Shown: in pieces, positions 6,443 through 42,476 of the stretch | Layout of the letters: each line of letters begins with the position of its first letter | How positions within the stretch are numbered: the stretch's first letter is position 1 | NCBI GenBank assembly: GCA_038231675.1 | Contig: JBBRKX010000001.1 | Span: forward strand, 1-45,871 | DNA length: 45,871 bases | Direction of reading: 5' to 3' | DNA from: Chthonomonadales bacterium | Lineage (GTDB): Bacteria; Armatimonadota; Chthonomonadetes; Chthonomonadales; Chthonomonadaceae | Notes under the pieces: model-generated | Told to the model about the DNA's origin: nothing | What the model saw: only the letters and a program-made list of their open reading frames with translations | Database searches by the model: none | Position numbers and translations under genes: made by a program

Positions 6443-6447
6443 ACATT

Positions 6448-10780: not shown

Positions 10781-10807
10781 CCGATGTGATAACGTATCTT
10801 ACGGAAA

Positions 10808-11671: not shown

Positions 11672-11740
11672 GGAGCGCCCTTCTCGATTATCCCATCGAG
11701 CGGAGTTTGTTCCCGCGCTATCCGGTGCGAAAATGAGTCC

Positions 11741-12421: not shown

Positions 12422-12486
12422 GCTGCGCAGACCGCTGCACCGGTATATCATTGCTGCCGCCACCGGCCGCCGGTCATCATGTAATC

Positions 12487-13994: not shown

Positions 13995-14312
13995 CCTAGA
14001 CAGGGACGTCCGGCAAGCGCCCTTCCCGTGTCCATTCCAGCTGATCAGAATCTGACGCAATGCTCATCACCGGGTCAGGCCCTGGAGATCAGCGCTGCCA
14101 CGATTGGAAACTACAATGTGACAAGGGATCTGCTCGTTTCCGACCGACTCGGCGAAAACGCCGGCCACCACCACCCGCAAAACAAAACTGATCCTTTGAA
14201 GAGCCGCCCACACAAGCCTATGCGTGTGTTTAGAAAGATTCGTCCACAATAGCGGGACCAGCGACGGTGCACATCTAATGCTCTGTCCTGGGCCCGGTGC
14301 TAGGATTTTGCC

Positions 14313-20181: not shown

Positions 20182-20261
20182 GCTCACAACTCCGCTGATG
20201 CTGGAAGGGGTCGCAGGGGTAACGCCCCCGGCGTGGTGCAGGGCGCGAAAGCCCTGCCGCG

Positions 20262-20369
20262 CATCCAACCGGCGCACGGTTGGGCAGGAGTCAAGGGGGA
20301 AGGGGTCGCTTCCCCCTGGCGTGCTTGAACGGCGAAACGTTCACGGCATCCAACCGGCGTACGGTTGGG
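20262..20369. repeat. Two copies (85-bp period) of CATCCAACCGGCG(C/T)ACGGTTGGG, each an internal palindrome
   Basis: Copies at 20262-20284 and 20347-20369. Each contains CCAACCG-gcgya-CGGTTGG and is followed by a G-rich hairpin. A further hairpin, CAGGGC-gcgaaa-GCCCTG, is at 20239-20256. Confidence 0.7.
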
Positions 20370-25436: not shown

Positions 25437-27869
25437 TCAGAAACGAAGGACCTCTCCTCGATTGTCTAAGTCTACCTGTTTATTCGCATATTCAAGAAGT
25501 GGTATTGCTGCATTACAAATCCATATGCGATAGCAGGCTTCCACTGTTTCTCTTTCCAGGTCCGCCGTAACAAGTGCTTCTTTCTGCGACTGGAACAGCG
25601 TCGTGGCGCTCGCGGTCTTCATCAGGCGGTGGCCGAAGGCGTCATAGCCGTAGGCCGCGACCTGCGTCGCTCCTGCCGTCGCCGTGGCCAGCCGGTTGGC
25701 CTGGTTGTAATTAAGCGCCGTGATCCCTGAAGCGGTGGCAGGGCTGAAGCTGTTGATATTGCCCGCCGCCGTAGTGCCGATGGTCTGGGTCACGCCGCCC
25801 GTCTTCACGGTGGCCAGCAGGTTGCTGTTCGGCGTATAGGTATAGGTCGTCGTAGGCGCGACGGTCTGGAAGGTGCGGTTGCCGGAAGTGTCGTAGGTAT
25901 AGGCCAGGCTGCCGTAATTGCCGGCAGCGGTCTTGAGCCGGTTGTGGTTGTCATATCCCAGCGTCTGGCTGTTGGCCGGTGTCACCGCGTCGGTAATGGT
26001 CTTGACGTTGTTGGCGGCGTCATAGCCGTAGGTGAGGTTCTGCAGCGTGGAGGTTCCGGTATCGGTCAGCGTATTGAGGCGGTAATCGAGGTCGTAGCCG
26101 CGCGCCTCGGTGACGGCATTGCTAAAGAGCATGGCCGAAAGCGGCCCGAACGGCTCGTAGACGATGCCGGTCGCGGCGTTCACCGCGCTGCCCGCGCCAG
26201 GGGCCTTCGAGGTGACCGACGTGATGCGGCCCATGATGTCGCGGATATAGGTAACGAGCGTGCCGGACGGATAGGTAATTGTGGCGATACGATTAGCGGC
26301 GTCGAAACTGTTGGTTGTGACGAGCGGGCTGCTGCCCGTTATGGTGCGTGTTTCCTGAGAAATGTCCGAGCGTGAGTTATAGACGCGCGAGAGCGTGCCG
26401 GATGCGTCCGTGAGGCTCGTGAGCAGGCCGATGCTGTAGCCGTGCCCCGGCGTCTGGTCGTAAGTATAGGTGACGTTTTCCGCGGTGTCGGAAGGGTAAG
26501 CCGTGGTGAGCATGCGGTCGAGGGCGTCATAGGTGCTGTTTGCGGTGGCGCTGGTGGCGTCCACCTTCTGTCGCAGATTGCTGTCGCGGTCGTAATGATA
26601 GACCGCCGTGCCGGAATCCGGGCTCGCCTGCTGAATCGTATCGGCGAAGCCGTCATAGACGTAGCTGGTGAGCGCACCATTGGGGGCCTGGACGGTCAGG
26701 GGGCGGTCATGCGGGTCGTAGGTCGTGGTTGTGGTGCCGCCGGGTGCCGGATCGGTAACCGTCGAGAGGCGGTTCAGCGCATCGAAGGTCTGGGTGGTCC
26801 TGTGGGTCAGAGGATCGGTTATCGACAAGGCGTTGCTGTTGGGGTCGTAGCTGTATTTGGTGACCTGGCCCATTCCGCCGATATCCTGCGTCGTGCGGCC
26901 AAGTGCATCGAATACACCGGAATGTTTGTGAACCACGATGCTGGAAGGATCGAACGTCTGAATCAGCGTCCGGTCGCCCAGCGCATCAAGTGTGTACTGG
27001 ATGTTGTTGTCGAACAGATCGGTGACGCTGGTGAGCCGGTGCGCGGTATCGTAGCCGTTGGCGAGCTTGGAATTATCCGGCAGCGTGACGCTCGTGAGGT
27101 TTTCGGCGGCATCGTAGCCATAAGTGGTGACGAGATTGCCGCCCGTCGTCACTAGCGTGCTGGTGAGCAGGTAGTTGCGCGGATCGTAAGTGAGCAGTGT
27201 CGTGACATTGCTGGGATTGACGATAGTCAGCGGCAGCCCCCCGCCCGTATGCGAAGTGATATTGGTATTGTGTGACAGGGCGTCGCTTATCTGGGTCAAT
27301 GCGCCAGTGGCGTCATAGGTGAAGGTGGTTTTGTTCGTGACGTCCGTGCGCGGCGTCTGCACCGACTGCAGCAACGAATTGAGCCAGGTATAGGTCCAGA
27401 TACGCGTCTGGCCATTGGTCACGTAAGGGATGGTTCGCGTGACGGGCGTCGTGTCAGTCAGCACCTTGGTGAGGAGATTTCCGCCCGCGTCGTAGTTGAA
27501 ATTGGTCGTCACTTCTGGGGTCACGACCACGGCAGGCAGGTGATAAGGATAGGTGGTATTGGGCGTCGTCGTGTCATAGGTCGTGGTCGTCGTGCGGGCA
27601 ACCGGACTGCCGACCGCTTCGTTGACGGTGGTGGGCTGCCCTCGCGCATCGTTTACATACGATGTGAGGTTTCCATCCCAGTCCGTGGTGCTATTGATGT
27701 ATCCGTTGCTGTCATAGGTGAAGTTCCGGGTGGCCGCCGCCGTGGTCGCTGTCGCGGCGCGGCTGATCTGCGTTATCTTAGAAACGTTTTGTAGGGTGGT
27801 AAACGTGTAGGTATCCCTGACGTTAAACGCATTCTTAACAGTGGTGGTGCCGTCGGCGTTGTAGGTCAT
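25437..27869 (-). CDS. RHS/YD-repeat protein, C-terminal fragment (no PxxxxDPxGL core end or toxin domain)
   Basis: Dozens of YD-type repeats (TYTYD..G.L, YGYDA.N). In frame with 27912..29762 across a single TGA. Ends in a non-repeat, AT-richer tail. Confidence 0.8.
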   Translation of the reverse strand: MTYNADGTTTVKNAFNVRDTYTFTTLQNVSKITQISRAATATTAAATRNFTYDSNGYINSTTDWDGNLTSYVNDARGQPTTVNEAVGSPVARTTTTTYDTTTPNTTYPYHLPAVVVTPEVTTNFNYDAGGNLLTKVLTDTTPVTRTIPYVTNGQTRIWTYTWLNSLLQSVQTPRTDVTNKTTFTYDATGALTQISDALSHNTNITSHTGGGLPLTIVNPSNVTTLLTYDPRNYLLTSTLVTTGGNLVTTYGYDAAENLTSVTLPDNSKLANGYDTAHRLTSVTDLFDNNIQYTLDALGDRTLIQTFDPSSIVVHKHSGVFDALGRTTQDIGGMGQVTKYSYDPNSNALSITDPLTHRTTQTFDALNRLSTVTDPAPGGTTTTTYDPHDRPLTVQAPNGALTSYVYDGFADTIQQASPDSGTAVYHYDRDSNLRQKVDATSATANSTYDALDRMLTTAYPSDTAENVTYTYDQTPGHGYSIGLLTSLTDASGTLSRVYNSRSDISQETRTITGSSPLVTTNSFDAANRIATITYPSGTLVTYIRDIMGRITSVTSKAPGAGSAVNAATGIVYEPFGPLSAMLFSNAVTEARGYDLDYRLNTLTDTGTSTLQNLTYGYDAANNVKTITDAVTPANSQTLGYDNHNRLKTAAGNYGSLAYTYDTSGNRTFQTVAPTTTYTYTPNSNLLATVKTGGVTQTIGTTAAGNINSFSPATASGITALNYNQANRLATATAGATQVAAYGYDAFGHRLMKTASATTLFQSQKEALVTADLERETVEACYRIWICNAAIPLLEYANKQVDLDNRGEVLRF

Positions 27870-27911: not shown

Positions 27912-29678
27912 TCAGCTATTACTGTCGTAGGTCCAGCGTGCATAGATATTGCCGTCCTCATCAATAATGCTGGTCAGGGCCGAGAGGGGGACGGCATTTT
28001 CACCATAGTTGTAGGTGACACTGGTCACGGGCGAAGTGTTGAAGGATACCGATGAGAGCTGTATGCCATGAAGCGTCGAGTATCCGTATGTCAGGACAAG
28101 TGCGTCCGGCGTGGTAACAGTGTGTATAAGTCCGTTAGTGTAAGTGAAGCCGAGCGCGCGGCTGTAGGAATCGGTGACCGAGGCAAGCTGACTGCTACCG
28201 TTATAATGCAATGTCTGGGTATAACCGTTGCGCGCGGTAATCGTATTGAGAAGGGCCTTATAGCCGCCAGTCGCCGTGGTGTAGGATTCAACCGAATCGC
28301 TACTGTCGGTCAACGTCCAGGTTGAGCCTGAATGCGTCAGATGGAAATCGACATCGCTGTCGGTGTTCCACGTGCCGCCCGTAAGAGTAAAGGCGAGCTG
28401 GCGCCCGTCCGCACGCTCCACCATTACCGAGCTGGGCGAAAGAATATGGAGGTAGCGATCATAGGTTGAACGCCAATTCATCCCCAGGGTAAAAGCGATC
28501 GAAGACCCTGCCTGGCTATTGTAATAGCGTGCGAAGCTCAGCTGGTTCTGCCCGGTGGTCTGGTAATCGGTGGTTTGATAGAACACATTGCCGGTAGCTA
28601 TATCAATCGGCTCACCGGCTCCGCAGCTGCCCGGCTGGTCGCACGGGTTGCCTTCGGTCTTTGCAGCATTAGGGGTTGCAAGGAAGCCCCCTTGAGGGTT
28701 GGTCAAATCGATAGTGCCGACAATTTGTCCACTGTTATTAATGCCAGTGGCCCCATAATTCGGGGGTACTATGTTATTTTGAAATTGCCCGGTATTGACA
28801 TTGTAAAGGAATGACGTGAATGTCCCATCATTCGATTCTGTCCAGCCAACAACCTGGCCTAGGTCATTGAATCCGACGAAATCGATATTAAAATAGGCGA
28901 TCGGTACATTGAATGTCGCAAAGGCCCCACTAGTATAGATAAACGGTATTATATTGAAATTGGGATCCTCGTAATAACCCAAAATCTGGCCATTATTATT
29001 TATAGAAGCGAAACGTGTATTCAATGCACCCGGATAGGTAACGAGGGTAAAACTATCATTACTGTCTATAAATCCTCCGAACGGGGCATCGTACGAACTG
29101 CCGACCACAGTACCGCTATCATTAATCGCATTGGGATATGAGTGTGGGTATTGGGGATAACTAAAGGGTGTAAAAACTCCGTTATAGTAGAAAAAGTCCA
29201 CATAACCGTCCCCTGAGTCAATTGTCCAATTTGCTTCCCCTATGCTTTTGCCGCTGCTATTTATGCCGAGAAAACTCGTCTCAAGCTGGCAAGACATACT
29301 GCCAGAACAGCTGGGAAACGAGGGGTATGGAATGCTCGTATAGACGCCATTACTGTATGTAAAATTTGCCCACTGCTCATTGTATTGACTTTGATAGGCA
29401 TATCTATAGCCACCACTCACAACGCTATTGCCGCTAAGTGCGTCGGCTTCGATCCCATTGTTACCGGGGGGATAGTTAATGGGGGTTATCGTATAATCAG
29501 CGGTCTGGGCCATTGCCGTCGTTGAAACGCCCGTGGCTAGTAATAACGCGGCGGCTGGAAGGAAAGACAAACAGAGGGAGCGGAAAGACACTGTAAATAC
29601 ATCCGCCATTGTCGAGCGTACCCGGACGATACTGCCGGTTAAAAGTGAGGCACTCCTGCGCTGATGCTTTGTCGACAT
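27912..29678 (-). CDS. Secreted HAF-repeat + RHS-repeat protein, N-terminal fragment ending at an in-frame TGA
   Basis: Signal-like LCLSFLPAAALLLATGVSTTAMA. HAF-type repeats (INSSGKSIG, INDSGTVVG, INNNGQILG, FNDLGQVVG, INNSGQIVG) followed by YD repeats. Start taken at ATG 29678 (GGGAGA upstream); the track ORF extends to GTG 29762. Confidence 0.75.
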   Translation of the reverse strand: MSTKHQRRSASLLTGSIVRVRSTMADVFTVSFRSLCLSFLPAAALLLATGVSTTAMAQTADYTITPINYPPGNNGIEADALSGNSVVSGGYRYAYQSQYNEQWANFTYSNGVYTSIPYPSFPSCSGSMSCQLETSFLGINSSGKSIGEANWTIDSGDGYVDFFYYNGVFTPFSYPQYPHSYPNAINDSGTVVGSSYDAPFGGFIDSNDSFTLVTYPGALNTRFASINNNGQILGYYEDPNFNIIPFIYTSGAFATFNVPIAYFNIDFVGFNDLGQVVGWTESNDGTFTSFLYNVNTGQFQNNIVPPNYGATGINNSGQIVGTIDLTNPQGGFLATPNAAKTEGNPCDQPGSCGAGEPIDIATGNVFYQTTDYQTTGQNQLSFARYYNSQAGSSIAFTLGMNWRSTYDRYLHILSPSSVMVERADGRQLAFTLTGGTWNTDSDVDFHLTHSGSTWTLTDSSDSVESYTTATGGYKALLNTITARNGYTQTLHYNGSSQLASVTDSYSRALGFTYTNGLIHTVTTPDALVLTYGYSTLHGIQLSSVSFNTSPVTSVTYNYGENAVPLSALTSIIDEDGNIYARWTYDSNS

Positions 29679-29929
29679 GCACGAGTCTCCCGTGTTTTTA
29701 ACGCTTGCTTCGGTATGGCGCGGTTCATCCGCGTTTGAGCGCTGTTGCGCGATCAGATACACCTCCCGGTAGAAAAGTCATCAACATTCTTAACTCGGCA
29801 GTAGCAATAGAGTTAAATGCCTCAGACCCGGCACGCGGGCACGTCCACTACGGAAACGCTTTCCTCAAAGCGAGTTAATAAATTGTGAGCATAGAACTTC
29901 GCGACGCCTATTGAAGCATCCTTGACTCC

Positions 29930-29974: not shown

Positions 29975-30958
29975 GTGGTGGGTGACTTAGTCAGTATTAG
30001 TAAAGAGTCGTTAACACCTGCGCAGTACAGTCAGCTCGCCGACGTACCGCCGGAACTCGAATGGCTCGCCAACATCACCAACCCGAAAACCCGGCGCTTT
30101 TATAAAGCAGACGTTGGGGAATTCATTTTGTTCACCGGGCTGCATGATTATAAAGAGCTGCGCACAGTGGCACGGTCACATGTCATCGCCTGGCGCAAGG
30201 CGATGGAAACCCGGAACCTCACACCGGCAACTATCCGGCGCAAGCTCTCGGCCTTATCTTCACTCTTCGATTATCTTTGCGAGCGCAATGCGGTCCTCGG
30301 CAATCCGGTGGACGGCGTCAAACGCCCGATTGCCAATAACAATGAAGGAAGTACTCCCGCCTTGGGAGACGCACAAGCGCGTCGCCTGCTGGAGGCCCCT
30401 GCCCCGGACACGCTGAAGGGTGTAAGGGATCGCGCGATCCTTGCCACCCTGCTCTATCATGGCATCCGCCGCGAGGAACTGTGCCTACTGCGCATTCGCG
30501 ACATGCAGAGTAGGCAAGGCGTTGTGCACTTGCGCGTCAAGGGTAAGCGTGACAAGATCCGGTTTGTTCCCGTTCACCCGATGGCGCAGCGGTTGATTCT
30601 CGAATATCTGGATGCGGTGAAGCTCGGGGCGGGACTGGCGGAGCTGGATTTGGATGGTCCCCTCTTCCGTCCGGTAACCAACAACCGCACCGGAACGCTC
30701 GACAGGCATCTGGAGCCCGGCTCGATTCGCCGAAACATCGTCGTGAAGTACGGGTGCGAAACCGGCATCGACGCGGAAGTGATCGGGTTGTGTGTGCATT
30801 CGATGAGGGCGACGGCGGCGACAAACGCGCTTTCCAACGAGGCCGATATTGCCAAAGTCCAAGAATGGCTGGGCCACGCCAACGTCTCCACCACCCGCCT
30901 CTACGACCGCCGCAAGAGCAAACCCGAGGACAGCCCGACATTTCACGTGAAGTATTAG
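29975..30958 (+). CDS. Tyrosine recombinase (XerC/D-like, plasmid-resolution type)
   Basis: LYHGIRREEL (Arg), HSMRATAAT (H-x-x-R) and LGHANVSTTRLY (His/Tyr). GTG start. Confidence 0.85.
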   Translation: MVGDLVSISKESLTPAQYSQLADVPPELEWLANITNPKTRRFYKADVGEFILFTGLHDYKELRTVARSHVIAWRKAMETRNLTPATIRRKLSALSSLFDYLCERNAVLGNPVDGVKRPIANNNEGSTPALGDAQARRLLEAPAPDTLKGVRDRAILATLLYHGIRREELCLLRIRDMQSRQGVVHLRVKGKRDKIRFVPVHPMAQRLILEYLDAVKLGAGLAELDLDGPLFRPVTNNRTGTLDRHLEPGSIRRNIVVKYGCETGIDAEVIGLCVHSMRATAATNALSNEADIAKVQEWLGHANVSTTRLYDRRKSKPEDSPTFHVKY

Positions 30959-31024: not shown

Positions 31025-31969
31025 CTACTCGTTGTTGTACCCTTCTTCATAGCGCCGTTCCCGGATCTCCGTCTCAGCGTGTTCGCTAGCTAGTCCAGCT
31101 GCTTCAATCTCAATCTGGCCGACAAGGTGAAGGTCGCAAACTGGACACTTGAATTCTTCACTGGCATAGTTCTTGTCGACGGCTTCATCTTCCCCAAAAT
31201 CTCCCAAGGTCTCCTCAGATATAATTTCCTCTACTAGTACGCCCGTCATATAGGCCTTTCCACCGCAGGCTGGACATTCTACAACCCATTCCCTGGCTCC
31301 AAGAAGGCGGAATAGCCCAGTATAGTTATAGCTTTCTTTAGCTTGGGCCGCGTCGAGCGCAACGTCCCGTTCCTTTCTTTTTCGCTTGAGAAAGTTGTTT
31401 CTTGCGTGCTCGACCCGGACCCTTGCTGCGTCACTCATGGCCTGTTGGGCGTGCGAGACAATCTCATTCGGAGCTTTTGCTTGATCAGCTCCCAGCCATT
31501 CTTCGAGGGACGACTCCATTTTGGTAAGAATGATTTGAGCCGCGTGCCAATACCGCCCTTCCCAAGCGCCGAGTTTCATCTCTTGAAAAGGTGCTTCGCC
31601 AGAATGCAATTCGGCATTCCTGCGCTCTGAAATGTCATCACAAAAAGTCTTGACCCTCTCGTCAAAGCCTCTCGTTATGTATCGCAGGCGTTCGTAAAGA
31701 GTATGCGCTGCAATCGTTTTTATGTCGGTTCCTAGAGTCACGCCGGAGGCGGCAAAGAGAGAGATCTGATCCTGTGGATTAACAATTAGGCTAGGATGAA
31801 TCTGCGCAAGGCAGGCTTTCCCGAGAAGCTCAAGCGCGAGAGATGCCCAAAGCTGATATTCGTCCAGGTCTCCGGTGCCTTTGCGCTTAAGCGCGCGTTG
31901 CACGTAGACTTTGGATTTGGCGAAGATCGCATCGAAGCTAACTGCGGGCAACAAGACCGGGGCTTTCAT
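31025..31969 (-). CDS. HEPN-like (DUF4145/Abi-type) protein with a C-terminal double CxxC zinc ribbon
   Basis: FCDDISERRNAELHSGE contains RNAELH (R-x4-H). C-terminal CPACGG ... CPVCD. Its ATG overlaps the stop of the upstream dioxygenase-like gene (31966-31969). Confidence 0.6.
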   Translation of the reverse strand: MKAPVLLPAVSFDAIFAKSKVYVQRALKRKGTGDLDEYQLWASLALELLGKACLAQIHPSLIVNPQDQISLFAASGVTLGTDIKTIAAHTLYERLRYITRGFDERVKTFCDDISERRNAELHSGEAPFQEMKLGAWEGRYWHAAQIILTKMESSLEEWLGADQAKAPNEIVSHAQQAMSDAARVRVEHARNNFLKRKRKERDVALDAAQAKESYNYTGLFRLLGAREWVVECPACGGKAYMTGVLVEEIISEETLGDFGEDEAVDKNYASEEFKCPVCDLHLVGQIEIEAAGLASEHAETEIRERRYEEGYNNE

Positions 31970-32625
31970 TGCGCATATACCCGCAGGAGTTTTCTGCGTT
32001 GGTCTGAAGGTACGTTGTTTCCGCGACCGTGCAACACCCTCCAGTTATCTATAACCAACACATCACCCTCATGCCAATCCCAGGTAATAAACCTTCTTCG
32101 CTGTCTTTCAATATCGTAGAGCCGCATCGCAGTCACGCTGGACTCACTTATCGGCTCCATGCAACCGGGGTCGATCCTTATAAAGTCTCGCCTGGAGTCG
32201 ATTAGGCTGGTGTAGAACGATCTGCCTCCATTCTTGATCAAGAAAATTGACGACCGTAGCAATAGACACTCGTCCTTCGAAAAACTGGCGTCACGCGAAT
32301 CAACTAACAGGGTCGGTGTGCGGACACTACCCACTTCGACACAGGCGAGAATGATATATCGGCAAGGAACCGTCCAGTGGGCAGTGTCAGTGTGAAGTGG
32401 CAAAGCACCAAGTCCGTAAGCGTGGCTCAAAGACGAGACCGGCGCGCTGCCCTCGCTCTGAGGTGAAATTGTTTCAATCTTTTTCCGCCCGGGGCTGGCT
32501 ACGATGGTGCCTAGCGTCCGTGCAATGGAAGTGACGTGCTCGGGCAGATCGGGAATACGACCCAAGGCGAGCGACGCCCAGCCCTCTATTCGCAGCTGCA
32601 CAGAAAATTCCGAAGGAATGGCCAC
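31966..32625 (-). CDS. Small TauD/TfdA-like Fe(II)/2-oxoglutarate dioxygenase-fold protein (219 aa)
   Basis: LPLHTDTAH (H-x-D) and VIDNWRVLHGRG (distal His + Arg) match the facial triad and 2OG-binding pattern of the clavaminate-synthase-like family. Confidence 0.55.
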   Translation of the reverse strand: MAIPSEFSVQLRIEGWASLALGRIPDLPEHVTSIARTLGTIVASPGRKKIETISPQSEGSAPVSSLSHAYGLGALPLHTDTAHWTVPCRYIILACVEVGSVRTPTLLVDSRDASFSKDECLLLRSSIFLIKNGGRSFYTSLIDSRRDFIRIDPGCMEPISESSVTAMRLYDIERQRRRFITWDWHEGDVLVIDNWRVLHGRGNNVPSDQRRKLLRVYAQ

Positions 32626-33047: not shown

Positions 33048-34346
33048 ATGCCTAAAGCGAAGAAAAGACTTGTGTTCGCCGATGCCTTTGCCGGATGTGG
33101 TGGACTGTCGCTTGGCCTTTTACAGGCGGGCTTGGAGGGCCGGTTGGCGATCGAGCACGATAAATTTGCCTTCGAGACTTTCCGCACGAACCTGCTCACG
33201 AAGAATTCCGAGTTCAAATTTTCGTGGCCGCCGTGGCTGCCAAAGGAACCGATAGCGGTGGGGTCGTTCCTGGCTAAGTACAAGGACGAGCTTAAGGCCA
33301 CGCGGGGCAAAATTGACGTACTGGTCGGTGGCCCGCCATGCCAGGGGTTTTCGAGCGCCGGACGGAGAAAACATGACGATCCCCGGAACCAGTTGTTCGC
33401 CGCCTACCTGCGCTTGGTGGACATCTTGAAGCCCAGGGCGGTGCTTATTGAAAATGTCCGTGGATTCACAATGGATTTCAACGCAGACGACCGAGTGAAG
33501 AACTACTCGCAAAAGCTACGGGATAGGCTGGCGGAGGATTACGACGTTTTCGAGGAGCTACTTGACCTTTCCCAGTTCGGCGTTCCACAACTTCGCACGC
33601 GTTATTTTCTCCTCGCCCTGCAACCGGGAATGTGCCAGGAAAATCCCTTTGATGTGCTGAGGGCCAGATTGCCGTCGTTCCTGCGGTCAATGCAATTGAA
33701 AGCGCCTGTCTCGTCGTGGGCTGCAATTTCCGATCTTGAAGTCGGCCGGGGCGGCAAGCAGCCTTCGAGCGAGACGGCCGGGTTCGACGAAATCGCATAC
33801 ACCAGCCCGCGGACGCGCTTTCAAAAGCTCATGGGCGCGGCAGAGACCCCTCCAACAGATCTCCGCCTTGCGCGCCACTCCGCACAGATAACGGAACGCT
33901 TCCGGGAAATCATAGAACTCAGTCACGCGGAAGGACGTCTCAATACGACGATCAGCGACGAGGTTCGGGCGCGTTTTGGTTTGAAAAAAAGGGCGCTTCG
34001 CGTATTGGACCCCGACCGCCCATCCCCCACCATTACCAGTCTGCCCGACGATCTTCTCCACTATCAAGAACCGCGGGCGCTGACGGTTCGGGAAAACGCT
34101 CGACTCCAGAGTTTCCCGGATTGGTTTTCTTTCAAAGGGAAGTACACAACAGGTGGCCACCTGCGCCGCAAAGAAGTTCCGCGCTTCACCCAAGTGGCGA
34201 ACGCGGTCCCGCCGCTCGTCGCAAGAGCGTTCGGTGAACTCCTGATTGAGCTATTTGGAAACCTTCGTAACGACCCGGTCGCCTGTCGCAACGTCCATCG
34301 CGTTGAGCGCGTCCAGAAGCCCTCTGAACTCGTTGCGCAGGCCTAA
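33048..34346 (+). CDS. dcm: DNA (cytosine-5) methyltransferase, no adjacent cognate endonuclease
   Basis: Motif I FADAFAGCGGLSLG, IV GGPPCQGFS, VI LIENVRGF, VIII QLRTRYFLLA, IX TVRENARLQSFPDWF, X ANAVPPLVA. Confidence 0.9.
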   Translation: MPKAKKRLVFADAFAGCGGLSLGLLQAGLEGRLAIEHDKFAFETFRTNLLTKNSEFKFSWPPWLPKEPIAVGSFLAKYKDELKATRGKIDVLVGGPPCQGFSSAGRRKHDDPRNQLFAAYLRLVDILKPRAVLIENVRGFTMDFNADDRVKNYSQKLRDRLAEDYDVFEELLDLSQFGVPQLRTRYFLLALQPGMCQENPFDVLRARLPSFLRSMQLKAPVSSWAAISDLEVGRGGKQPSSETAGFDEIAYTSPRTRFQKLMGAAETPPTDLRLARHSAQITERFREIIELSHAEGRLNTTISDEVRARFGLKKRALRVLDPDRPSPTITSLPDDLLHYQEPRALTVRENARLQSFPDWFSFKGKYTTGGHLRRKEVPRFTQVANAVPPLVARAFGELLIELFGNLRNDPVACRNVHRVERVQKPSELVAQA

Positions 34347-35219
34347 GATCAGGCGACGCAATTCGCGTGTTTCATGGATACTAACTGACTTACCCTCGTG
34401 GTCGACGACGGCGTGCGGCTTCCCGTCGGGCACGAGGACCATGTGGCCAAGACGGTTGCGATCCGGCACGACTTGTTGCTGATAGGCAACGATGGCGGTT
34501 CTGTAGCCTTTGTGGGCAGCAAATGCGGGCCCTTTGAGAAGACCGCTTAGGATACGCAACCGATCATTCGCAGTAAGGATTATGTGCGCTCCAAAGAAAG
34601 CGCCCAAGGTAGTCGATCCCTCAAGTTCCGTGGCCTTCTTGACAAGTTCATCGATGCGCGCCTGGACATAACCAAGAGCTTCCTTGAACATTTTGGTTTT
34701 GCCCTCGTCGTCCAACTTGCCGTGGACGATAGTGAGGCACTGGTTAACGATGTGATCGATGTCGCTGGTGGCGCCCATCACGATTCCACGCGTATGGTCG
34801 AGGTCCAGCACTTTCTTAACGAGCGACTCGAAAACCCCCATTACTTCGTCGACGAGCTGTGTCCGATTTGCGCAGTAAACGCCTTCGAGGCCCTTTTCGA
34901 ACGCCAACCTTCTCAATTCCTCAGGAGCAGTCTGCGCGGAATAGAAAACGACGTCTTTATATCGCACCGTTTCGCGAATCTCCGCGATGGCATCCTGGCC
35001 AACTACGCCGTTGCCTAAGTCCCAATCGACTAAGATTAGGTCGATTTCATCAGTAAACACGTCACTTGCAATCGCAGCGCGAACCTCATCTGTCGATTGG
35101 CAAAGAGTCGGGCTGAACAGGAAACCTTCCTGTTCCATTTGTTTCTTGATGGCGGTGATTTGAGCCGCTACAAAATCAGGCTGATCGTCGACCCACAGCA
35201 CGTTGAAATCGAGCCTCAT
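34251..35219 (-). CDS. Receiver (REC)-like domain fused to a HEPN-like C-terminal domain
   Basis: REC pattern VLWVDDQ / LILVDWDLG / VVFYSAQ. C-terminal TANDRLRILSGLL...VVPDRNRLGH (R-x4-H). Start overlaps the upstream GHKL gene by 4 nt. The 3' end overlaps the convergent MTase by 96 nt. Confidence 0.65.
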   Translation of the reverse strand: MRLDFNVLWVDDQPDFVAAQITAIKKQMEQEGFLFSPTLCQSTDEVRAAIASDVFTDEIDLILVDWDLGNGVVGQDAIAEIRETVRYKDVVFYSAQTAPEELRRLAFEKGLEGVYCANRTQLVDEVMGVFESLVKKVLDLDHTRGIVMGATSDIDHIVNQCLTIVHGKLDDEGKTKMFKEALGYVQARIDELVKKATELEGSTTLGAFFGAHIILTANDRLRILSGLLKGPAFAAHKGYRTAIVAYQQQVVPDRNRLGHMVLVPDGKPHAVVDHEGKSVSIHETRELRRLILGLRNEFRGLLDALNAMDVATGDRVVTKVSK

Positions 35220-37582
35220 ACTGCTTTCCTTCCGCCGGCAAGCTTAATAATAAATGCTAAGCCCTTGCCCGCGTCATCATCCAATTCAACGGTTCCGCCC
35301 ATTTCACCCAACACTTGGCGCACATGGTACAAGCCCAATCCAGACCCCTGGGTTGTTGTATAGCCCATCTCAAAAATGCGAGCTTTATTGGTTCCCGGTT
35401 TGAGGCCTCGCCCGTTGTCACTCACGCGCATCGACAGGCCGCTCTTATCAAGGGGGGACAAAACAAATTTGATGGTGGACGCCTTGGCGCGCATTGCGTT
35501 GCTGATGAGGTTGTCAACGATGATCGAGGCGTTTATGGGGTTGAACATCTTCTTCAAACCAGGGTGGGTGTTCTCGACCTGTATCCGCAGACGGTTGCCT
35601 CCAAACACCTTCGCTATCTGTTCGATGTAATCCGTGATGAAGCCCGCGAAATCAGTGTCAATCTTTTCCGAGTCCAACTTAAAGTTCGCCTTCGCCGCGA
35701 ATCGCGTTATGGCAAGCACTTTCCGGTTAAGGAACGCCATTTGCTCAAGGGCCTTCAGCATCGTTTCACGCGGCACCGCTTTTTGCCCCGCCGTATCCGT
35801 GAGGAGGTTTTCAATCTGCTGGGCGATATCCACCGCGTAGATCGTCACCTGATGATGCAGGTTCAGAATCGTTGACTTGTCGACGGTTACGACGGCTTCC
35901 AGGAAGTGTGAGCGGCGGCGCTCAGTTTCAACTTCGCTTTCGGCCGATTCTGCCCGCCGATTCGCAGCCTCGGCCGACGAGCGCTCGCGATCTGCGATTT
36001 GAATCGCCTCCGCTGCGGACTTTCTCAGTTCCTCGAAACGCTTCTCTGCCTTGACTAACTTCGCGAGAAAGGGTTTATCGCCGGTCTTCTCGGCGATGGA
36101 ACGGAGGCTGACGAGGGAGTCCTCGAACTCGCTGGATCTCTCGTTCAATAAATCGACGAGCCGCTTGCTGTAATCGAGGAGTTCAATCTGCTCATTGTCG
36201 ACGAGGTTCGCCACAACCGCGGATACCCTGGCCCTACCAGGGTCGGTTAAAAGCCGCGAGAGATCGTCCGTATTCGCATCCGCCTTGTCCACCCACGAAA
36301 CGGGCACAACATACTTTTCGAGCCGCTTCAGGCAGTGGTCCATCACGGCCTTGTGCAACTGCTGCACGGCAGGGGTGGCAATAAGGCCCTGGTTGCGGCT
36401 TGACGCCTCCTGGAAGTCTTCGTCCGAACCGTAGACATCAACGCGCCCGATTATTTCGCGCGTCCCGAGAAAGCGGTTATAGCCCTGTTGCTTCCTCCTA
36501 TCGAAGCCGAACCAGTCGTCGCCGTCCTCCCCAATGGGATAAACACGGAAGCCGTTCCGGAACAGGAAGACCGATCCGAATTGCACGGACGGCAACCCCA
36601 CCCTGCGCGCGAAGGTGAGCTTGGCCGACTGGTTGAGGTAGTAGACCTCGCATGTGAATCCAGATTTCGCCAAAAACTTGTAGGGGTTGGGTTCGCGTAT
36701 TTTGTAGATTAGTTCCCCGCGGTCGGTGAGCGAAGTATTGACATGGTCGTTTTCGATGGAGACCCGGATAAAGGTGGTCTTTTCCTGGAGGGCGGAGAAA
36801 ATGAAATTGCCGACAAGGCCGTTGACGATCTCGCGGGCGGCAGGTTCCTCGCTTTTTTTCGCGGCGTCCGTGCTTACTTGCTTGTCGGCTGCCTCTTCCG
36901 CTGGCGCGGTGATAATGATCTTGAACTTGTCGCCCTTATCTCCAAAGGGATTAATCAGCTTGGCAAGCGATGACTTTAACGCGATAAGTCGTTGCCTATC
37001 CCATCTGCGCCTAAGCTTTCCGATTTCAACGACTGTGCCGTGGGCAAGCGCGTTGGCGAATTTGGCAAGTTCGTCGGGCAACTCGAACGCTGTGGTTTCC
37101 ATGTAGGTGACGGGGACCTTCTCGAAATGGTCCTTGTCATTCTTTTCAAAACGCTGCCAATCGACGTTGAGACGGTGAACGATACCGCCCTTTTCCCGCT
37201 TCGGGCGGGTTTGAAGAACGATCTGTTGGCCAAGGCGGTCGGATGAGAACCGCCCGATTCCCTTACTGCCCGCGTAATTCTTGCGCTCCGCCGCAACATC
37301 CCGGAAGTCCTTGGCGGAGCCTGTTTCTCTCTTTGCCGAATAGGCCACGAACAACCACTTGCTGGTCAGGTCGTCGTAGGACATTCCCGAGCCGTTGTCC
37401 GCGACGACCACGTTTGAATCGCCGAAATAAAGGTGGACGGTGTTTGCGGCGGCATCGAAGGAATTCTTGACGAGTTCAAAGATCGCGACCTCATCGTCGG
37501 TTATGAGTTCGCGGCCGAGTACCCGCTTTAGGCCGGTGCTCACATCGAAGTTAAGCGTCTTGGACTCGTTATCCTTTGCCAT
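35216..37582 (-). CDS. 788-aa protein with two GHKL ATPase modules: an N-terminal MORC/MutL-type HATPase and a C-terminal histidine-kinase-type HATPase
   Basis: N-terminal FELVKNSFDA, VVADNGSGM, GSKGIGRF. Central coiled coil (..ADRERSSAEAANRRAESAESEVETERRR..). LNLHHQV is a possible H-box. C-terminal N-box VDNLISNA, G1 SDNGRGL, G2 GSGLGLY. Confidence 0.75.
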   Translation of the reverse strand: MAKDNESKTLNFDVSTGLKRVLGRELITDDEVAIFELVKNSFDAAANTVHLYFGDSNVVVADNGSGMSYDDLTSKWLFVAYSAKRETGSAKDFRDVAAERKNYAGSKGIGRFSSDRLGQQIVLQTRPKREKGGIVHRLNVDWQRFEKNDKDHFEKVPVTYMETTAFELPDELAKFANALAHGTVVEIGKLRRRWDRQRLIALKSSLAKLINPFGDKGDKFKIIITAPAEEAADKQVSTDAAKKSEEPAAREIVNGLVGNFIFSALQEKTTFIRVSIENDHVNTSLTDRGELIYKIREPNPYKFLAKSGFTCEVYYLNQSAKLTFARRVGLPSVQFGSVFLFRNGFRVYPIGEDGDDWFGFDRRKQQGYNRFLGTREIIGRVDVYGSDEDFQEASSRNQGLIATPAVQQLHKAVMDHCLKRLEKYVVPVSWVDKADANTDDLSRLLTDPGRARVSAVVANLVDNEQIELLDYSKRLVDLLNERSSEFEDSLVSLRSIAEKTGDKPFLAKLVKAEKRFEELRKSAAEAIQIADRERSSAEAANRRAESAESEVETERRRSHFLEAVVTVDKSTILNLHHQVTIYAVDIAQQIENLLTDTAGQKAVPRETMLKALEQMAFLNRKVLAITRFAAKANFKLDSEKIDTDFAGFITDYIEQIAKVFGGNRLRIQVENTHPGLKKMFNPINASIIVDNLISNAMRAKASTIKFVLSPLDKSGLSMRVSDNGRGLKPGTNKARIFEMGYTTTQGSGLGLYHVRQVLGEMGGTVELDDDAGKGLAFIIKLAGGRKAV

Positions 37583-37616: not shown

Positions 37617-38459
37617 CTACGAGACCGCCCGCATTTCCTCTAGGAACCGCCGCAGAATTTCATCAATAGTTCCGATCGGTGGGTGTTTGGAGAGGTGCTG
37701 ACTGATGTCGTCAATAATGCGCTCTGGCGACCTAGCATCCTTCATGTTGGGATCGCGATGCGCCCAATCACGACCAGGATGCAGCGTATCCCAGGGTGAC
37801 CGCAGATTGGCGCGGGTCGCGGGATCGTCGCCATGTTTGCCGAAGCCATAGCAAATGCCCATTTCGGAATTCCAGATAGGCTTGAACAAATGAATTAGAT
37901 AATCTTCCGCCGATGTCTGCCAGCCCGTCTGCACAACAATCGCCCGATACTCAAAGTCTTCCAATCGCAGCGTGGTCGTGGCTTTCCCGATGTTCTTGCG
38001 GTGATCGTTGAGCCGATTGGCGAGGCGGTCGCCCTGCTCCATCGCGGTCTTCGCCGCGGGGTCGCCGGGATCGGCCTTGCCCACATATATGGGATGTTCC
38101 CGCTTCGTTATCTCCGCGTAGGCGGGAAACTCGCCATTATAGTAAATCGCGTAAACCCCCGAGCCGTAGAACCGCTCGACATTTGCAAGGTGCTTGCGGG
38201 CTTGAGCGATCATGGTGATACCGACGATGCGGCCCGCCACGTTCGGATTTGAGGGATCAAAGACGAAGCCGGGATGCTTGATGGGATCAAGATCCTCCAT
38301 GACCTTCCGTATCTTTTCGTAAGCCTCGGTGATTGTTTTGCGGACACGCTTCGCGCGGGGCGGAGCTAATTGGGATGGTTCTTCCGCAGCGAGTGTCTCC
38401 GAAAGCTCCTTCAGCTGCGCGGCCAACTGTTCAAGCTTTCCCGGAACCGTCGCCATCAC
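37617..38459 (-). CDS. GIY-YIG restriction endonuclease, Eco29kI/Cfr42I-like
   Basis: GVYAIYY ... PIYVGKA ... RLNDHRKN, then FKPIWNSEMGICYGFGKHGDD...SPWDTLHPGRDWA. Start overlaps the upstream MTase gene by 4 nt. Confidence 0.7.
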   Translation of the reverse strand: MMATVPGKLEQLAAQLKELSETLAAEEPSQLAPPRAKRVRKTITEAYEKIRKVMEDLDPIKHPGFVFDPSNPNVAGRIVGITMIAQARKHLANVERFYGSGVYAIYYNGEFPAYAEITKREHPIYVGKADPGDPAAKTAMEQGDRLANRLNDHRKNIGKATTTLRLEDFEYRAIVVQTGWQTSAEDYLIHLFKPIWNSEMGICYGFGKHGDDPATRANLRSPWDTLHPGRDWAHRDPNMKDARSPERIIDDISQHLSKHPPIGTIDEILRRFLEEMRAVS

Positions 38460-39634
38460 CCCTGCCCTTTCTTTAAAGAAAGCAGGGTGCCGGCGACGGA
38501 GCTGGCAACCACCTGGGCCAGACGCACGGGAACTGCGTTTCCCAGCTGCCGCATGGCCTCGGTCCAGGCCCCATGAAAGATGTAATCATCGGGGAAGGTT
38601 TGCAGGCGCGCCGCCTCCCGCACCGTGAAATACCGCACCGACCCGTCGGCGCGCGCAAGCATGTTCTCACCGCCGGGCACGCCGTGGTCGCCGGCCTTGA
38701 GCGTCTTCGCCGGTTCGTCGAGGGGGCTGCCGGTATGTCCGGGGTAGCTGCGCGCGCCCGGATTGAAGCGATGGTTGGGAACTTTGTTGTTGAGGAATTT
38801 TTCGGGATCGGGAAGATCGCTGATGGCATCTCGCACGGTGAGCCACGGCGTCCTGCCCTGTCCGAAAAGTTGGCCGCTCCTGAGCCGCGCCACGCGCGCG
38901 AGTTGGCGGCACTCCAGCATGGGCCGGTGTTTTTTGGCCACCGCGTGCCTGTCCCAGTACTCGCCGTTGATCCACTTGGAGGCAATCAATGCGTCCTCAA
39001 AATGGGTCTCGGGTGGAAAGCTCCATTCCACCCCAAGATCGGCGCGGAAACCGACAATGAAGACGCGCTCCCGCTTCTGCGGAATACCATAATCCGCGGC
39101 ATTTAGCACCTCGGCGATGACATGGTATTCACGGGCGCTGCGCGAGGTCCCGAAAGTTTCGAGGCGTCGGCAATGCTCGCGCCATGGCTCCCCCTTGCGT
39201 CGAACAAGGCTTGGGAACGTTAGCTGCAGGCGGATATATTCAAAATACGTCGCGAACGTTTCGCGCTTCAGGCCCTTGACGTTCTCAAAAATGAACGCTT
39301 TGGGCCGCAACTCGCGCACGGCGCGCACGGCTTCAGGAAACATATCGCGCTCGTCCATGAATCCGCGGTGTTTGCCACCGAGGGAGAACGGCTGGCAAGG
39401 CGGTCCGCCCGAGACGACCATCACCTCGCCGCCGAGGGTTCCATAATCGAACGCGCGCACATCGGCCTGGTGCAGCGGCCATTTTTCAATATTGCTGGCT
39501 TTATGGCGCTGGTTTTCATGGAAAGTCTCGCACGCGTCGGAATTCCATTCGATCACCGCGGCATGATGGAATCCGGCATTCGCCATGCCCATGGCAAGGC
39601 CGCCCGCGCCCGCGAACAGTTCAACGCTGCGCAT
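38456..39634 (-). CDS. dcm: DNA (cytosine-5) methyltransferase, cognate of the GIY-YIG endonuclease
   Basis: Motif I ELFAGAGGLAMG, IV GGPPCQPFS, VI FIFENVKGL, VIII PQKRERVFIVG, IX TVREAARLQTFPDDY, X GNAVPVRLA. Confidence 0.9.
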   Translation of the reverse strand: MRSVELFAGAGGLAMGMANAGFHHAAVIEWNSDACETFHENQRHKASNIEKWPLHQADVRAFDYGTLGGEVMVVSGGPPCQPFSLGGKHRGFMDERDMFPEAVRAVRELRPKAFIFENVKGLKRETFATYFEYIRLQLTFPSLVRRKGEPWREHCRRLETFGTSRSAREYHVIAEVLNAADYGIPQKRERVFIVGFRADLGVEWSFPPETHFEDALIASKWINGEYWDRHAVAKKHRPMLECRQLARVARLRSGQLFGQGRTPWLTVRDAISDLPDPEKFLNNKVPNHRFNPGARSYPGHTGSPLDEPAKTLKAGDHGVPGGENMLARADGSVRYFTVREAARLQTFPDDYIFHGAWTEAMRQLGNAVPVRLAQVVASSVAGTLLSLKKGQG

Positions 39635-40034
39635 CGAGGAATCTCCTTATCCGATTTTCCAACTTAGCCGCGTCCTTGATCTGGCATTCCCAGATGATCA
39701 ACACTTTCCAACCCTCGCGCTTGAGCGCCCGTTCATTCTTATCGTCCCGTTCCCTGTTTCCTTCGAGCTTCGGCGTCCAGAAGTCAAGGCGCGACTTGGG
39801 CATTCGCGCAATTGGGCAATTGGCGTGAAGGTGCCAGAAACAGCCGTGGATGAAAATAACCTTCCGCCGTGGCCGGAAAACGAGGTCGGGGCAGCCGGGC
39901 AGATTCTTCGCATGGAGCCGGTAGCGGTATCCAAGGGCAAAGACAAGCCTGCGGACAACCATCTCTGGGCGCGAGTCCTTGGAGCGGATGCGCGCCATGA
40001 TTTCGGATCGTTTTTCGGGAGAAACGGAGTCCAC
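39621..40034 (-). CDS. vsr: Very-short-patch repair endonuclease
   Basis: SRPEMVVRRLVFALGYRYRLH...PDLVF...VIFIHGCFWH...NRERDDKNERALKREGWKVLIIWEC. Confidence 0.9.
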   Translation of the reverse strand: MDSVSPEKRSEIMARIRSKDSRPEMVVRRLVFALGYRYRLHAKNLPGCPDLVFRPRRKVIFIHGCFWHLHANCPIARMPKSRLDFWTPKLEGNRERDDKNERALKREGWKVLIIWECQIKDAAKLENRIRRFLDAQR

Positions 40035-40040: not shown

Positions 40041-40268
40041 TCAATCTCCCCTAAGCTGGCTGAGCAGCGGCCACTGATCCGCCACGTATTTCTCAACGGC
40101 CTCGCGCACGACCCACGCGATGGACACTTTCTTTCGCTTGGCCACGTCCTCGATGGTTTTATACAATTCAGGCGGAAATGTGACCGAGGCGCGTGGCTGC
40201 GCGCCTGTTTTTGCCTTTCCCGCCGCCCGTTGTCCACTCATGCCCGGTCGCCTCGCTTCCTGCACCAC
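40041..40268 (-). CDS. Ribbon-helix-helix (CopG-like) protein, first gene of the R-M operon
   Basis: RASVTFPPELYKTIEDVAKRKKVSIAWVVREAVEKYV is a typical RHH. GTG 40268 or ATG 40241. 6 nt upstream of vsr. Confidence 0.65.
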   Translation of the reverse strand: MVQEARRPGMSGQRAAGKAKTGAQPRASVTFPPELYKTIEDVAKRKKVSIAWVVREAVEKYVADQWPLLSQLRGD

Positions 40269-41069: not shown

Positions 41070-42005
41070 TCAGGCTGCGACGCTTGCCTGCTGCTCTTTC
41101 TGCTGCAGGCCGTTTAAGTAATCCGCGGCGCGTTGCGCGTGGGCGGCTGCCGAGAATATCGCGCGCTTGTCTTCCTTGAGCACGGTCAGCCAATGCCCTA
41201 AATAAGCAGCGTGGTCTTCCCTTACTTCCGGGGTGATGCCAATTTCCGCACACAGAAAAGCGGCTCCGAGTTCGGCAACCAGTTCTTCGCGGGCGTAGCC
41301 GTGGTCGCCGAAACGTTTGCCGCTGAAATCCCGATCCAACCGGCTCTTGTGCTTGGTCCAGTGGGTAAGCTCATGAAACGCGGTTGCGTAATAGCTTTCC
41401 TTGTCCTTAAAGGCCTCGAACGGTGGAAGCTGCACCATGTCGCGGGCGGGTGCATAGAATGCGTTGTTGCCGCCATGCTGGATGGCTGCTCCTGTCGCGG
41501 TCATAAAACGGTCGGCATGTTCGATGCGATCCGTCAAAGGCAGCGGGTTTTCAGGGTGGGCGTAGAAATGTGCCGGCAGTCCGTCCACCTGCTCGACGTT
41601 GAACACGGTATAGCCTTTCATGAAAGGGATCTCGCGCTCGACATCCTCGCCCTGTTCGTTGGTCTCGGTCTTGCTGATGGTGTTGGCGTAGACCACCAGA
41701 GAGCCATGCTCGCCTTTGCGGACGTTGGCGCCTAGTTCCTGGGCTTGGCGGTAGGTCATCCAGATAGGTGCGGCGTATCCCTTGGTCATGGCTTCGCCCC
41801 ACAGTAAGAGGATGTTCATGCCACGGTACGGGGTGCCGTTATGGCGTAGGGGTCGCGTGATGCGTCCGGCAGCGTGTTCCGATGCCCAGGGCTTCATCCA
41901 TGGGCGGATACCCTGCTCCAGGTCGCTGATGATATGGTCGGTAACTTTGGTGTAAACATCCTTGCGGTCAATGCTGGCTGCGTTGGCTGTTGCGGTCTTG
42001 GTCAT
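41070..42005 (-). CDS. ardC: ArdC-like antirestriction protein (ssDNA-binding N-domain + HExxH metalloprotease)
   Basis: DVYTKVTDHIISDLEQGIRPWMKPW, YRGMNILLLW, WMTYRQAQELGANVRKGE, FHELTHWTKH, REELVAELGAAFLCAEIGI. AGGAG lies upstream of ATG 42005. Confidence 0.85.
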   Translation of the reverse strand: MTKTATANAASIDRKDVYTKVTDHIISDLEQGIRPWMKPWASEHAAGRITRPLRHNGTPYRGMNILLLWGEAMTKGYAAPIWMTYRQAQELGANVRKGEHGSLVVYANTISKTETNEQGEDVEREIPFMKGYTVFNVEQVDGLPAHFYAHPENPLPLTDRIEHADRFMTATGAAIQHGGNNAFYAPARDMVQLPPFEAFKDKESYYATAFHELTHWTKHKSRLDRDFSGKRFGDHGYAREELVAELGAAFLCAEIGITPEVREDHAAYLGHWLTVLKEDKRAIFSAAAHAQRAADYLNGLQQKEQQASVAA

Positions 42006-42476
42006 TTCCGGTCTCCTTAAATGGGCTTTTGAGGTTGCTGTGCTCATGCACATGCACCTCTGCCCACCGGCGAGGTCGGGGGTAGCAACGCGTCAAGGGC
42101 GCAAGACCGGGAGGGGAATCACCCGGCCTGCACAAGCCCCGCTTTTGGGCGCGGAAGGTTGGGGATACCCGGTCGGCGGCGAAGCTTTACCCTTGCGCGG
42201 CGCGTGGGGCAGCGCCCCTAGTGTTTTTGGGTTTCGCGAAAGGGATAGTTACCCGGATGGGCCGAGACGCGCTTTTAAGCGGCTCGGTGAGCGCGTTGGC
42301 GAATAGAGCCCGGCCAGCGCATTTCAGCGGGTTCGCCATGTAATCTGTAAGCCGGGATCGTGGTTTCCGGTGTTGTCTATGGAGTATATGGAGCCTATTG
42401 TGTCTGTAGAGACTATGTACTTGATGGAATAAATGGAGCTTGCGTAGTCTGGGGAGAATGACTAGGCTCGGCCGCC

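Follow-up and report, generated by a model that had tools for sequence, protein, structure and literature searches.

We analysed a stretch of 45,871 nucleotides (nt) from a Chthonomonadales bacterium (GenBank assembly GCA_038231675.1, contig JBBRKX010000001.1, positions 1 to 45,871), hereafter the window, and found in it two adjacent minus-strand genes, for proteins of 788 and 322 amino acids (aa), that converge on a gene for a 432-aa C-5 cytosine DNA methyltransferase (methylase). The 788-aa protein combines a paraMORC-type ATPase, as its input module, with the core of a soluble histidine kinase, and the 322-aa protein joins a receiver to an all-helical domain that is probably a HEPN RNase. 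Methylase, kinase and receiver protein keep their arrangement in loci from several phyla. We tentatively regard the convergent 5-methylcytosine (m5C) methylase, the paraMORC-kinase and the receiver-HEPN protein, often with the very-short-patch repair nuclease Vsr, as one functional unit, an assignment to which we give slightly less than an even chance, and we propose below how it may respond to the methylation state of DNA.

By tblastn and clustering of open reading frames (ORFs) we surveyed 43 related loci (6 from contigs encoding close homologues and 37 from reference genomes, a few being duplicates of others) spanning Acidobacteriota, Fibrobacterota, Eremiobacterota, Ignavibacteriales and the Alpha-, Beta- and Gammaproteobacteria. 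The kinase gene was present in all 43, and a gene for the receiver protein lay beside it in 42; orthologues of the convergent methylase, 46-76% identical, were found in 41. The 4-nt overlap, by which the kinase and receiver genes are translationally coupled, was kept in 40 of the 42 loci that have both, and a convergent overlap of 28-113 nt between the receiver and methylase genes was kept in 33. Vsr stood beside the trio in about 15 of the 43, often directly upstream of the kinase gene; besides the trio and Vsr, the 43 loci held no conserved gene family and no restriction nuclease. Homologue searches showed that both the 788-aa and the 322-aa protein are conserved as real genes: the best 120 homologues of the kinase were all full-length, 71-96% identical and in possession of both ATPase domains, and the 322-aa protein had 1156 homologue clusters. 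At one locus (L004, positions 7234-11700), a chromosomal copy in decay, the kinase gene is in three fragments and the methylase is degraded, with the receiver-effector ORF still intact. At another (L038, positions 7001-14046, from a Massilia sp. metagenome-assembled genome), Vsr is convergent and in the methylase's stead comes a 1843-aa protein that carries a P-loop motif.

The 432-aa methylase has its motifs intact (FAGCGG, PPCQGFS, ENV, QLRTR, RENARLQSFPD and NAVPP). Across 30 loci from several phyla, its target-recognition region was conserved as strongly as the catalytic motifs, and the best-conserved part of the kinase in the same loci was residues 321-460 (36203-36622, minus strand). Together these two findings hint at one fixed DNA specificity for both proteins. 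The target specificity of the methylase could not be inferred from its relatives in the PDB.

Pfam placed two ATPase domains in the kinase, HATPase_c_3 at residues 31-162 (3.6e-23) and HATPase_c at 686-781 (2.4e-22), with the motifs ELVKNSFDA (36-44), DNGSGM (62-67) and GSKGIGRF (105-112) in the N-terminal domain and LNLHHQV (573-579), NLISNA (691-696), DNGRGL (722-727) and GSGLGLY (746-752) in the kinase half. Among 24 kinase homologues E36, N40, D62, G64, G66, G105, G108, G110, G182 and T183 were invariant, as were N691, N695, the D722-N-G-x-G726 and G746-S-G-L-G-L751 motifs; H576, H577, Q578 and T580 were likewise unchanged. Residues 564-781 aligned with the DHp and catalytic ATP-binding (CA) domains of HK853 (phmmer against 4jas/3dge, E 2e-7), with H577 falling on the phosphorylated histidine, and the CA domain had many sensor-kinase matches in NCBIfam and the PDB. 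Profile matches of the N-terminal domain in the PDB were to HtpG, PMS1 and MutL; the domain has intact ATP-binding motifs I-IV and a cytosine methylase/Vsr neighbourhood and is thus of the paraMORC type. Between the two halves, residues 200-560 had no Pfam match with E-values up to 10 and form a middle region without a recognisable domain; the halves are joined by a helical linker (residues ~480-562) in which D, E, K and R make up 43% of 83 residues and which may form a coiled coil, judging from its sequence. The proposal from the sequence-only reading, a model's interpretation of this DNA made from the letters and ORF translations, that the protein unites two GHKL modules, one MORC-type and one of histidine-kinase type, was borne out by Pfam, the HK853 alignment and the invariant motifs, the second module being part of a complete DHp-CA core.

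The N-terminal half of the 322-aa protein carries the receiver motifs VDDQ (10-13), LILVDWDLG (61-69) and YSAQ (93-96). An AlphaFold2 model built with 36 homologues had the element order of a (beta-alpha)5 domain, and Foldseek matched it to PorX, LvrB, DctD, ComE and many other receivers with a probability of 1.0. The window protein gave zero Pfam matches even at E = 10, and its receiver matches elsewhere were only marginal; PF00072 was matched by 40 of 56 diverse relatives. Across these 56 sequences (26-58% identity) D65 was invariant, and D12, S94 and R119 were conserved in at least 90%. On the structure model the receiver fold is genuine, as had been suggested from the letters. The 788-aa and 322-aa proteins form a kinase/receiver pair, with His-to-Asp phosphotransfer predicted from the conserved residues on both sides.

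The 322-aa protein's C-terminal domain begins near residue 134 of proteins of about 310 aa and was found almost only behind this receiver (nearly all of 114 clusters at 50% identity). Its motifs in the window protein are DRLRILSGLL (219-228) and DRNRLGH (253-259). In 40 diverse sequences of the domain R144, G145, R254, H259 and R288 were invariant, and in sets of 40-56 sequences with domain identities down to 21% R254 and H259 did not vary and N255 was conserved in at least 90%. AlphaFold2 modelled the domain alone (predicted local distance difference test score, pLDDT, 87.8) as four long helices, the second and third of which are separated by a short helical insert (model helices 8-36 and 39-68, insert 73-78 plus 85-95, then 99-126, with the motif at its end, and 149-179). 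HEPN domains are four-helix up-down bundles that have an insert between helices 2 and 3, an Rx4-6H motif where helix 3 ends and a polar residue after the Arg (PMC3710099), a layout with which the helix order and motif position of the model agree. Among 40 members scanned with E-values up to 10, only four Pfam families were matched by more than one, namely MAE_28990 (three times), Apea, RiboL-PSP and Swt1 (twice each), all of them HEPN families and all matched below threshold. Likewise below threshold, PADLOC models matched relatives of the 322-aa protein as Csx1 (four times) and as Csx1/Csm6 CARF+HEPN proteins (best 8.9e-5), and the NCBIfam model cas_csm6 gave weak matches in two relatives; the two of these alignments that we inspected lay within the C-terminal half and reached up to the Rx4H motif. 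The 322-aa protein resembles Csm6/Csx1, the ligand-activated CARF-HEPN RNases of type III CRISPR-Cas, in its order of an N-terminal Rossmann-like sensor followed by a helical, HEPN-like domain, but differs from them in having a phospho-accepting receiver instead of a CARF domain that binds cyclic oligoadenylate, in its lack of a CRISPR context and in matches that fall far under the thresholds.

Against the HEPN assignment, no significant profile match linked the domain to a known HEPN family. Foldseek searches of the C-terminal model against the PDB and BFVD reached a best E-value of 0.8, among coiled-coil and terminase noise, a result that neither confirms nor excludes HEPN, and the C-terminal profile against PDB sequences returned helical noise, namely designed helical proteins only. 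Consensus sequences of the domain against Pfam were no improvement over single members, again giving helical noise, and its alignment profile against a set of 5.8 billion proteins recovered its own family members only, with no annotated distant relative. The HEPN domain that the sequence-only reading saw here is supported by the invariant Rx4H motif, the helix layout and the recurrent weak HEPN matches. We consider the domain a probable, though not established, HEPN domain and, from its sequence, a putative RNase. A four-helix bundle with an exposed histidine is also what an HPt domain looks like, and the domain might instead be an HPt-like or structural bundle in which H259 relays the phosphoryl group to an unlinked partner, as the lack of a HEPN match by Foldseek would allow. 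However, the family had zero Hpt matches with E-values up to 10 and recurrent weak matches only to HEPN families, the conserved neighbourhood contains no further receiver gene, and the invariant Arg residues and R-N-x3-H spacing fit HEPN and not the HPt motif, so that we hold this explanation to be very improbable.

The kinase and receiver genes are the last two of a six-gene minus-strand array in the order ribbon-helix-helix (RHH) protein, Vsr, m5C methylase, Eco29kI-type restriction endonuclease, 788-aa protein and 322-aa protein, with families assigned by Pfam and spacings along the array of 6, -14, -4, 34 and -4 nt. The ORFs, the 4-nt overlap, the array and all quoted motifs lay where the sequence-only reading had put them. 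That reading regarded the pair as appended to an Eco29kI-type restriction-modification (R-M)/Vsr operon, acting as a second line behind the R-M system, and did not mention the convergent 432-aa methylase. The survey gave a different picture: kinase and receiver occurred together in 42 of the 43 loci, and the Eco29kI nuclease in none; the constant partner of the pair is the convergent methylase. The Eco29kI pair was found only in the closest relatives of the window (L044-L046, 81-86% identity), between Vsr and the kinase gene in the arrangement RHH-Vsr-M-R(Eco29kI)-kinase-receiver followed by the convergent methylase. In the more distant L001 (68-79% identity), RHH-Vsr lies immediately ahead of the kinase gene; L045 and L046 have an RHH gene before Vsr, and the RHH gene before Vsr in L001 is a 33% identical match. 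Since the nuclease is absent from all 43 loci and present only in the closest relatives, the Eco29kI pair is a subclade-specific insertion, and it looks as if an Eco29kI R-M cassette was inserted into an older RHH-Vsr-kinase-receiver operon. A functional place of the pair in the Eco29kI operon was therefore rejected and, with Eco29kI absent and the convergent methylase in 41 of 43 loci, the module is better read as an R-M-like system of its own than as a second line. A scan for promoters and terminators gave counts no better than chance, and no terminator-like site was found between the receiver-effector gene and the convergent methylase gene.

The architecture, which the sequence-only reading could not place, has a described counterpart. 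Bellieny-Rabelo, Pretorius and Moleleki (2021, Genome Biol Evol; PMC8011034) reported HATPase_c_3 + HEF_HK + HATPase_c proteins beside Response_reg_2 proteins, linked in 91.6% of 644 regions, associated with C5-methylases and Vsr and distributed over many phyla, and suggested that they descend from paraMORCs and control R-M systems; the Response_reg_2 proteins had no further domain, and no effector or defence system was named. The window lineage has the same architecture, with a soluble kinase made of HATPase_c_3, a DHp domain with the core His and HATPase_c, an adjacent receiver-like gene and links to C-5 cytosine methylases and Vsr across many phyla, and is a sister lineage of the HEF_HK pairs. 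It is set apart by the lack of any match of the window proteins to PF19191 or PF19192, even at E = 10 (among the 56 relatives of the 322-aa protein one matched PF19192, at 0.0022, versus 40 for PF00072), by an H-box that reads H-H-Q and not H-E/D-F, and by size, the E. coli members of the HEF_HK family being far longer (989 and 582-607 aa). The 2021 description has no effector domain and no nuclease-free three-gene unit, and favours R-M regulation over an RNase output. What the present analysis adds to it is a separate, compact lineage, a candidate for the effector that carries an invariant motif of catalytic type, and the finding that methylase, kinase and receiver-effector protein form a conserved unit without a restriction nuclease. 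Our literature search found no paper that names or tests the window lineage. Of all units tested in the DefensePredictor study, the one with the highest log-odds (14.78) was an E. coli cousin, a 607-aa PF19192 receiver protein (labelled 'response regulator receiver domain') paired with a 989-aa kinase-like protein that has HATPase_c_3 (labelled 'ATP-binding protein'; PMC13092281, Table S6).

The role suggested for the HEF_HK/Response_reg_2 pairs (PMC8011034) provides a rival explanation, in which kinase and receiver are a regulatory two-component system that tunes R-M, relaying a cytoplasmic cue such as nucleoside triphosphate level or DNA state to the methylase and perhaps to the Eco29kI pair, with no toxin. 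The RHH protein at the array head, a possible transcriptional regulator, points to regulation of the locus, and the overlap of the receiver gene with the converging methylase gene would permit antisense or protein-level control; there is, however, no restriction nuclease to regulate in any of the 43 loci. A regulatory output would also fit the failure of the E. coli cousin pair to give phage defence, but no DNA-binding or other known output domain was found in the receiver protein, and the invariants of its output domain, Arg/Arg/His/Arg, are a pattern typical of a phosphodiester-cleaving site. We judge a purely regulatory role unlikely.

Among named defence systems, Detocs (Rousset et al. 2023) has a similar logic: the kinase DtcA, the buffer receiver DtcB and the receiver-PNP effector DtcC provide abortive-infection defence, for which the His, the Asp and the effector site all proved necessary. 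Like Detocs, the window pair joins a cytoplasmic histidine kinase to a receiver fused to a putative toxic enzyme and not to a DNA-binding domain. Unlike Detocs, its sensor is a MORC-class ATPase and not TPR repeats, its effector is HEPN-like and not an ATP nucleosidase, it has no stand-alone buffer receiver gene, and it has an obligatory m5C methylase partner. The PADLOC Detocs models had no match, and no TPR or PNP domain and no conserved third receiver gene were found; the module has none of the defining features of Detocs and was rejected as a variant of it. More generally, PADLOC-DB v2.0.0 gave zero model matches for the window 322-aa protein and only weak ones for its relatives.

In R-M loci, paraMORCs accompany cytosine methylases and Vsr and frequently bear a nuclease or TIR extension at the C-terminus (Iyer et al. 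2008, PMC2292703), and fusions of paraMORC to HEPN domains of the Ymh family in R-M loci have been proposed as analogues of the anticodon nucleases PrrC/RloC (Anantharaman et al. 2013, PMC3710099). The window module shares with these the linkage to R-M or methylase genes of an ATPase joined to a HEPN RNase, here a probable one; this RNase is interpreted as an arm that acts on RNA to back up immunity at the DNA level or to bring about suicide. The window module differs from them in dividing the ATPase and the HEPN-like domain between two proteins with a predicted His-Asp phosphorelay between them, and in that the conserved unit has no Type I R-M partner or restriction nuclease.

The kinase N-terminus also resembles the Type II restriction enzymes BbrUII/HgiDII (NF050001, 3.8e-23), far under the cutoff (81.9 bits versus 550) and over profile positions 13-209 of 659 and kinase residues 22-235 only, and the PADLOC REase_II model likewise resembles it. 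BbrUII/HgiDII enzymes have a homologous N-terminal GHKL domain and are similarly paired with an m5C methylase and Vsr-type repair, but the remainder of the 788-aa protein is a kinase core; as only the ATPase domain is common, the identification of this protein as a BbrUII/HgiDII-type restriction enzyme was rejected. A wider form of the idea is that kinase and receiver together are the R component of an ATP-dependent restriction complex, Type II/IV-like, acting on unmethylated DNA, in which the helical domain would itself be a DNase or would act as adaptor to a nuclease site within the middle of the kinase. The gene order does imitate that of R and M units that converge, the best-conserved part of the kinase (residues 321-460) matches no known family, and it is common for paraMORCs of R-M loci to bring a DNase with them or to recruit one (PMC2292703); yet no nuclease family was detected in either protein, the restriction-enzyme likeness is confined to the ATPase domain, and a complete, invariant kinase core and receiver site would be superfluous for a simple nuclease. 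Characterised HEPN enzymes, moreover, are RNases (PMC3710099). A DNA-cutting complex thus appears to us an improbable explanation.

We propose instead that the methylase marks self, that the paraMORC-kinase senses unmethylated DNA and that phosphotransfer switches on the RNase, a mechanism that we hold with limited confidence, at not quite an even probability. The methylase would mark host DNA, and the MORC-class ATPase of the kinase, together with its very conserved middle region, would engage DNA without the mark, for example that of an invading phage or plasmid, or that of the host once the methylase is lost. The coiled coil would then relay the ATP-driven closure to the kinase core, leading to autophosphorylation on H577 (or H576), and the phosphoryl group would pass to D65 of the receiver. 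In the AlphaFold2 model helix alpha-5 of the receiver runs almost directly into the first effector helix, and dimerisation of receivers through this helix could assemble the HEPN active site (R254/H259), after which RNA cleavage would lead to growth arrest or abortive infection.

Besides the missing HEPN matches, several findings weigh against this mechanism. In the H-box the His is followed by Gln or His and not by the Glu or Asp usual in HisKA kinases, and the receiver holds Arg (R119) at the position of the canonical Lys, with Lys in one relative. The kinase, for which DNA binding and methylation sensing are predicted, has no recognisable domain in its middle region. The m5C methylase is absent from one locus, L038, where kinase, receiver and Vsr are present. 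Finally, the E. coli cousin was scored non-defensive when its two genes were placed under pBAD without a methylase (PMC13092281, Table S6); the missing methylase partner may be the reason for this failure.

The well-resolved contexts of the module were all mobile elements (integrases, MobA/MobL, TraG, TrwC, Rep, ParA and ArdC), several of which recur in the backbone of the window (Table 1). A plasmid collection gave no match for the module at the DNA or protein level, and viral contigs gave one match only, which is the same scaffold as a Pararobbsia genome locus. These contexts, with the patchy distribution across phyla at high sequence identity and the E. coli cousin that gave no phage defence, would also suit a selfish addiction module that stabilises the mobile element by post-segregational killing: once the element is lost the methylase would be diluted, the kinase would sense newly unmethylated host DNA and growth would be halted by the RNase; the tally of one viral-contig match and zero plasmid matches was likewise counted in its favour. 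Because its molecular mechanism is the same as that of the proposed defence, this explanation differs only in the selective benefit, and the data do not discriminate between the two. R-M systems usually serve both defence and addiction. As the sole function, addiction has in our view a low probability.

Table 1 Features of the kinase/receiver/methylase module and of its surroundings in the window
Feature	Position	Strand	Basis or remark
788-aa paraMORC-type GHKL ATPase/histidine kinase	35216-37582	-	ORF, Pfam
N-terminal Bergerat-fold (MutL/MORC/Hsp90-class) ATPase domain, residues 31-162	37097-37492	-	PF13589; proposed sensor
Charged helical linker from sensor half to kinase core, residues ~480-562	35897-36145	-	Composition
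H-box LNLHHQV, residues 573-579	35846-35866	-	phmmer alignment; candidate phospho-His H577 (or H576)
Histidine-kinase CA domain, residues 686-781	35240-35527	-	PF02518 2.4e-22
322-aa receiver-effector protein (REC + HEPN-like domain)	34251-35219	-	ORF, homologues
Receiver (REC) domain, residues 1-135	34815-35219	-	AlphaFold2 + Foldseek
D65, predicted phospho-acceptor (codon)	35025-35027	-	Conservation
C-terminal all-helical domain, residues ~136-310, probable HEPN RNase	34290-34814	-	AlphaFold2, conservation
R254-N-R-L-G-H259, Rx4H with Asn after Arg, predicted catalytic motif	34443-34460	-	Conservation
432-aa C-5 cytosine DNA methyltransferase, third module gene	33048-34346	+	PF00145 1.3e-48
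ATGA stop/start overlap of kinase and receiver genes	35216-35219	-	4 nt, read from sequence
Convergent 3'-3' overlap of receiver-effector and 432-aa methylase genes	34251-34346		96 nt, coordinates
Eco29kI-type restriction endonuclease	37617-38459	-	RE_Eco29kI 1.7e-36
m5C methylase of the Eco29kI-type pair	38456-39634	-	DNA_methylase 1.1e-61
Vsr very-short-patch repair nuclease	39621-40034	-	PF03852 6.5e-29
RHH protein at array head, possible transcriptional regulator	40041-40268	-	RHH_1 7e-5
Tyrosine integrases	16455-17612, 29975-30958		Window backbone
MobA/MobL relaxase	19126-20277		Window backbone
TraG/TraD-like coupling protein	23163-24725		Window backbone
RHS-repeat toxin, split	25437-27869 + 27912-29762		Window backbone
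ArdC anti-restriction protein	41070-42053		Window backbone

Elsewhere in the window, a 314-aa ORF (31025-31969, minus strand) contains the motif ERRNAELH (Rx4H with Asn after Arg), two CxxC pairs and weak zinc-ribbon matches, and on this sequence it may be a second HEPN-type gene, situated between an integrase and the methylase; an hhalign comparison of the C-terminal domain profile with it was not significant (probability 0.16%). Coupled to it by 4 nt is a 219-aa ORF (31966-32625, minus strand) with a match to TauD dioxygenases that is confined to their C-terminal end. Near the start of the window, a run of large plus-strand ORFs of 548, 1272, 398, 449, 456 and 369 aa (352-13527) matched no Pfam family except SIR2_2 on the last (12418-13527, 2.8e-5, just above the cutoff), and could be a defence locus that has no name yet.

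At three genes the module is small, and it is widespread, with more than a thousand protein clusters distributed over several phyla; E36, H576/H577, D65, R254 and H259 are residues suited to point mutation. The most far-reaching claim, that it represents a distinct R-M-like class of immunity in which a MORC-type ATPase reads the m5C state and a His-Asp relay passes the signal to a HEPN RNase, so that foreign DNA would set off RNA cleavage and dormancy with no endonuclease, and with it the first MORC-family ATPase that is the input of a histidine kinase with a defined output, is in our estimate rather unlikely. If true, methylase-linked systems need not cut DNA, and a methylation reader would be wired through two-component chemistry to suicide or dormancy at the level of RNA. 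Receiver-effector proteins in immunity would then extend beyond Detocs, and the MORC-family ATPases, whose bacterial roles remain obscure, would gain a concrete biochemical output.

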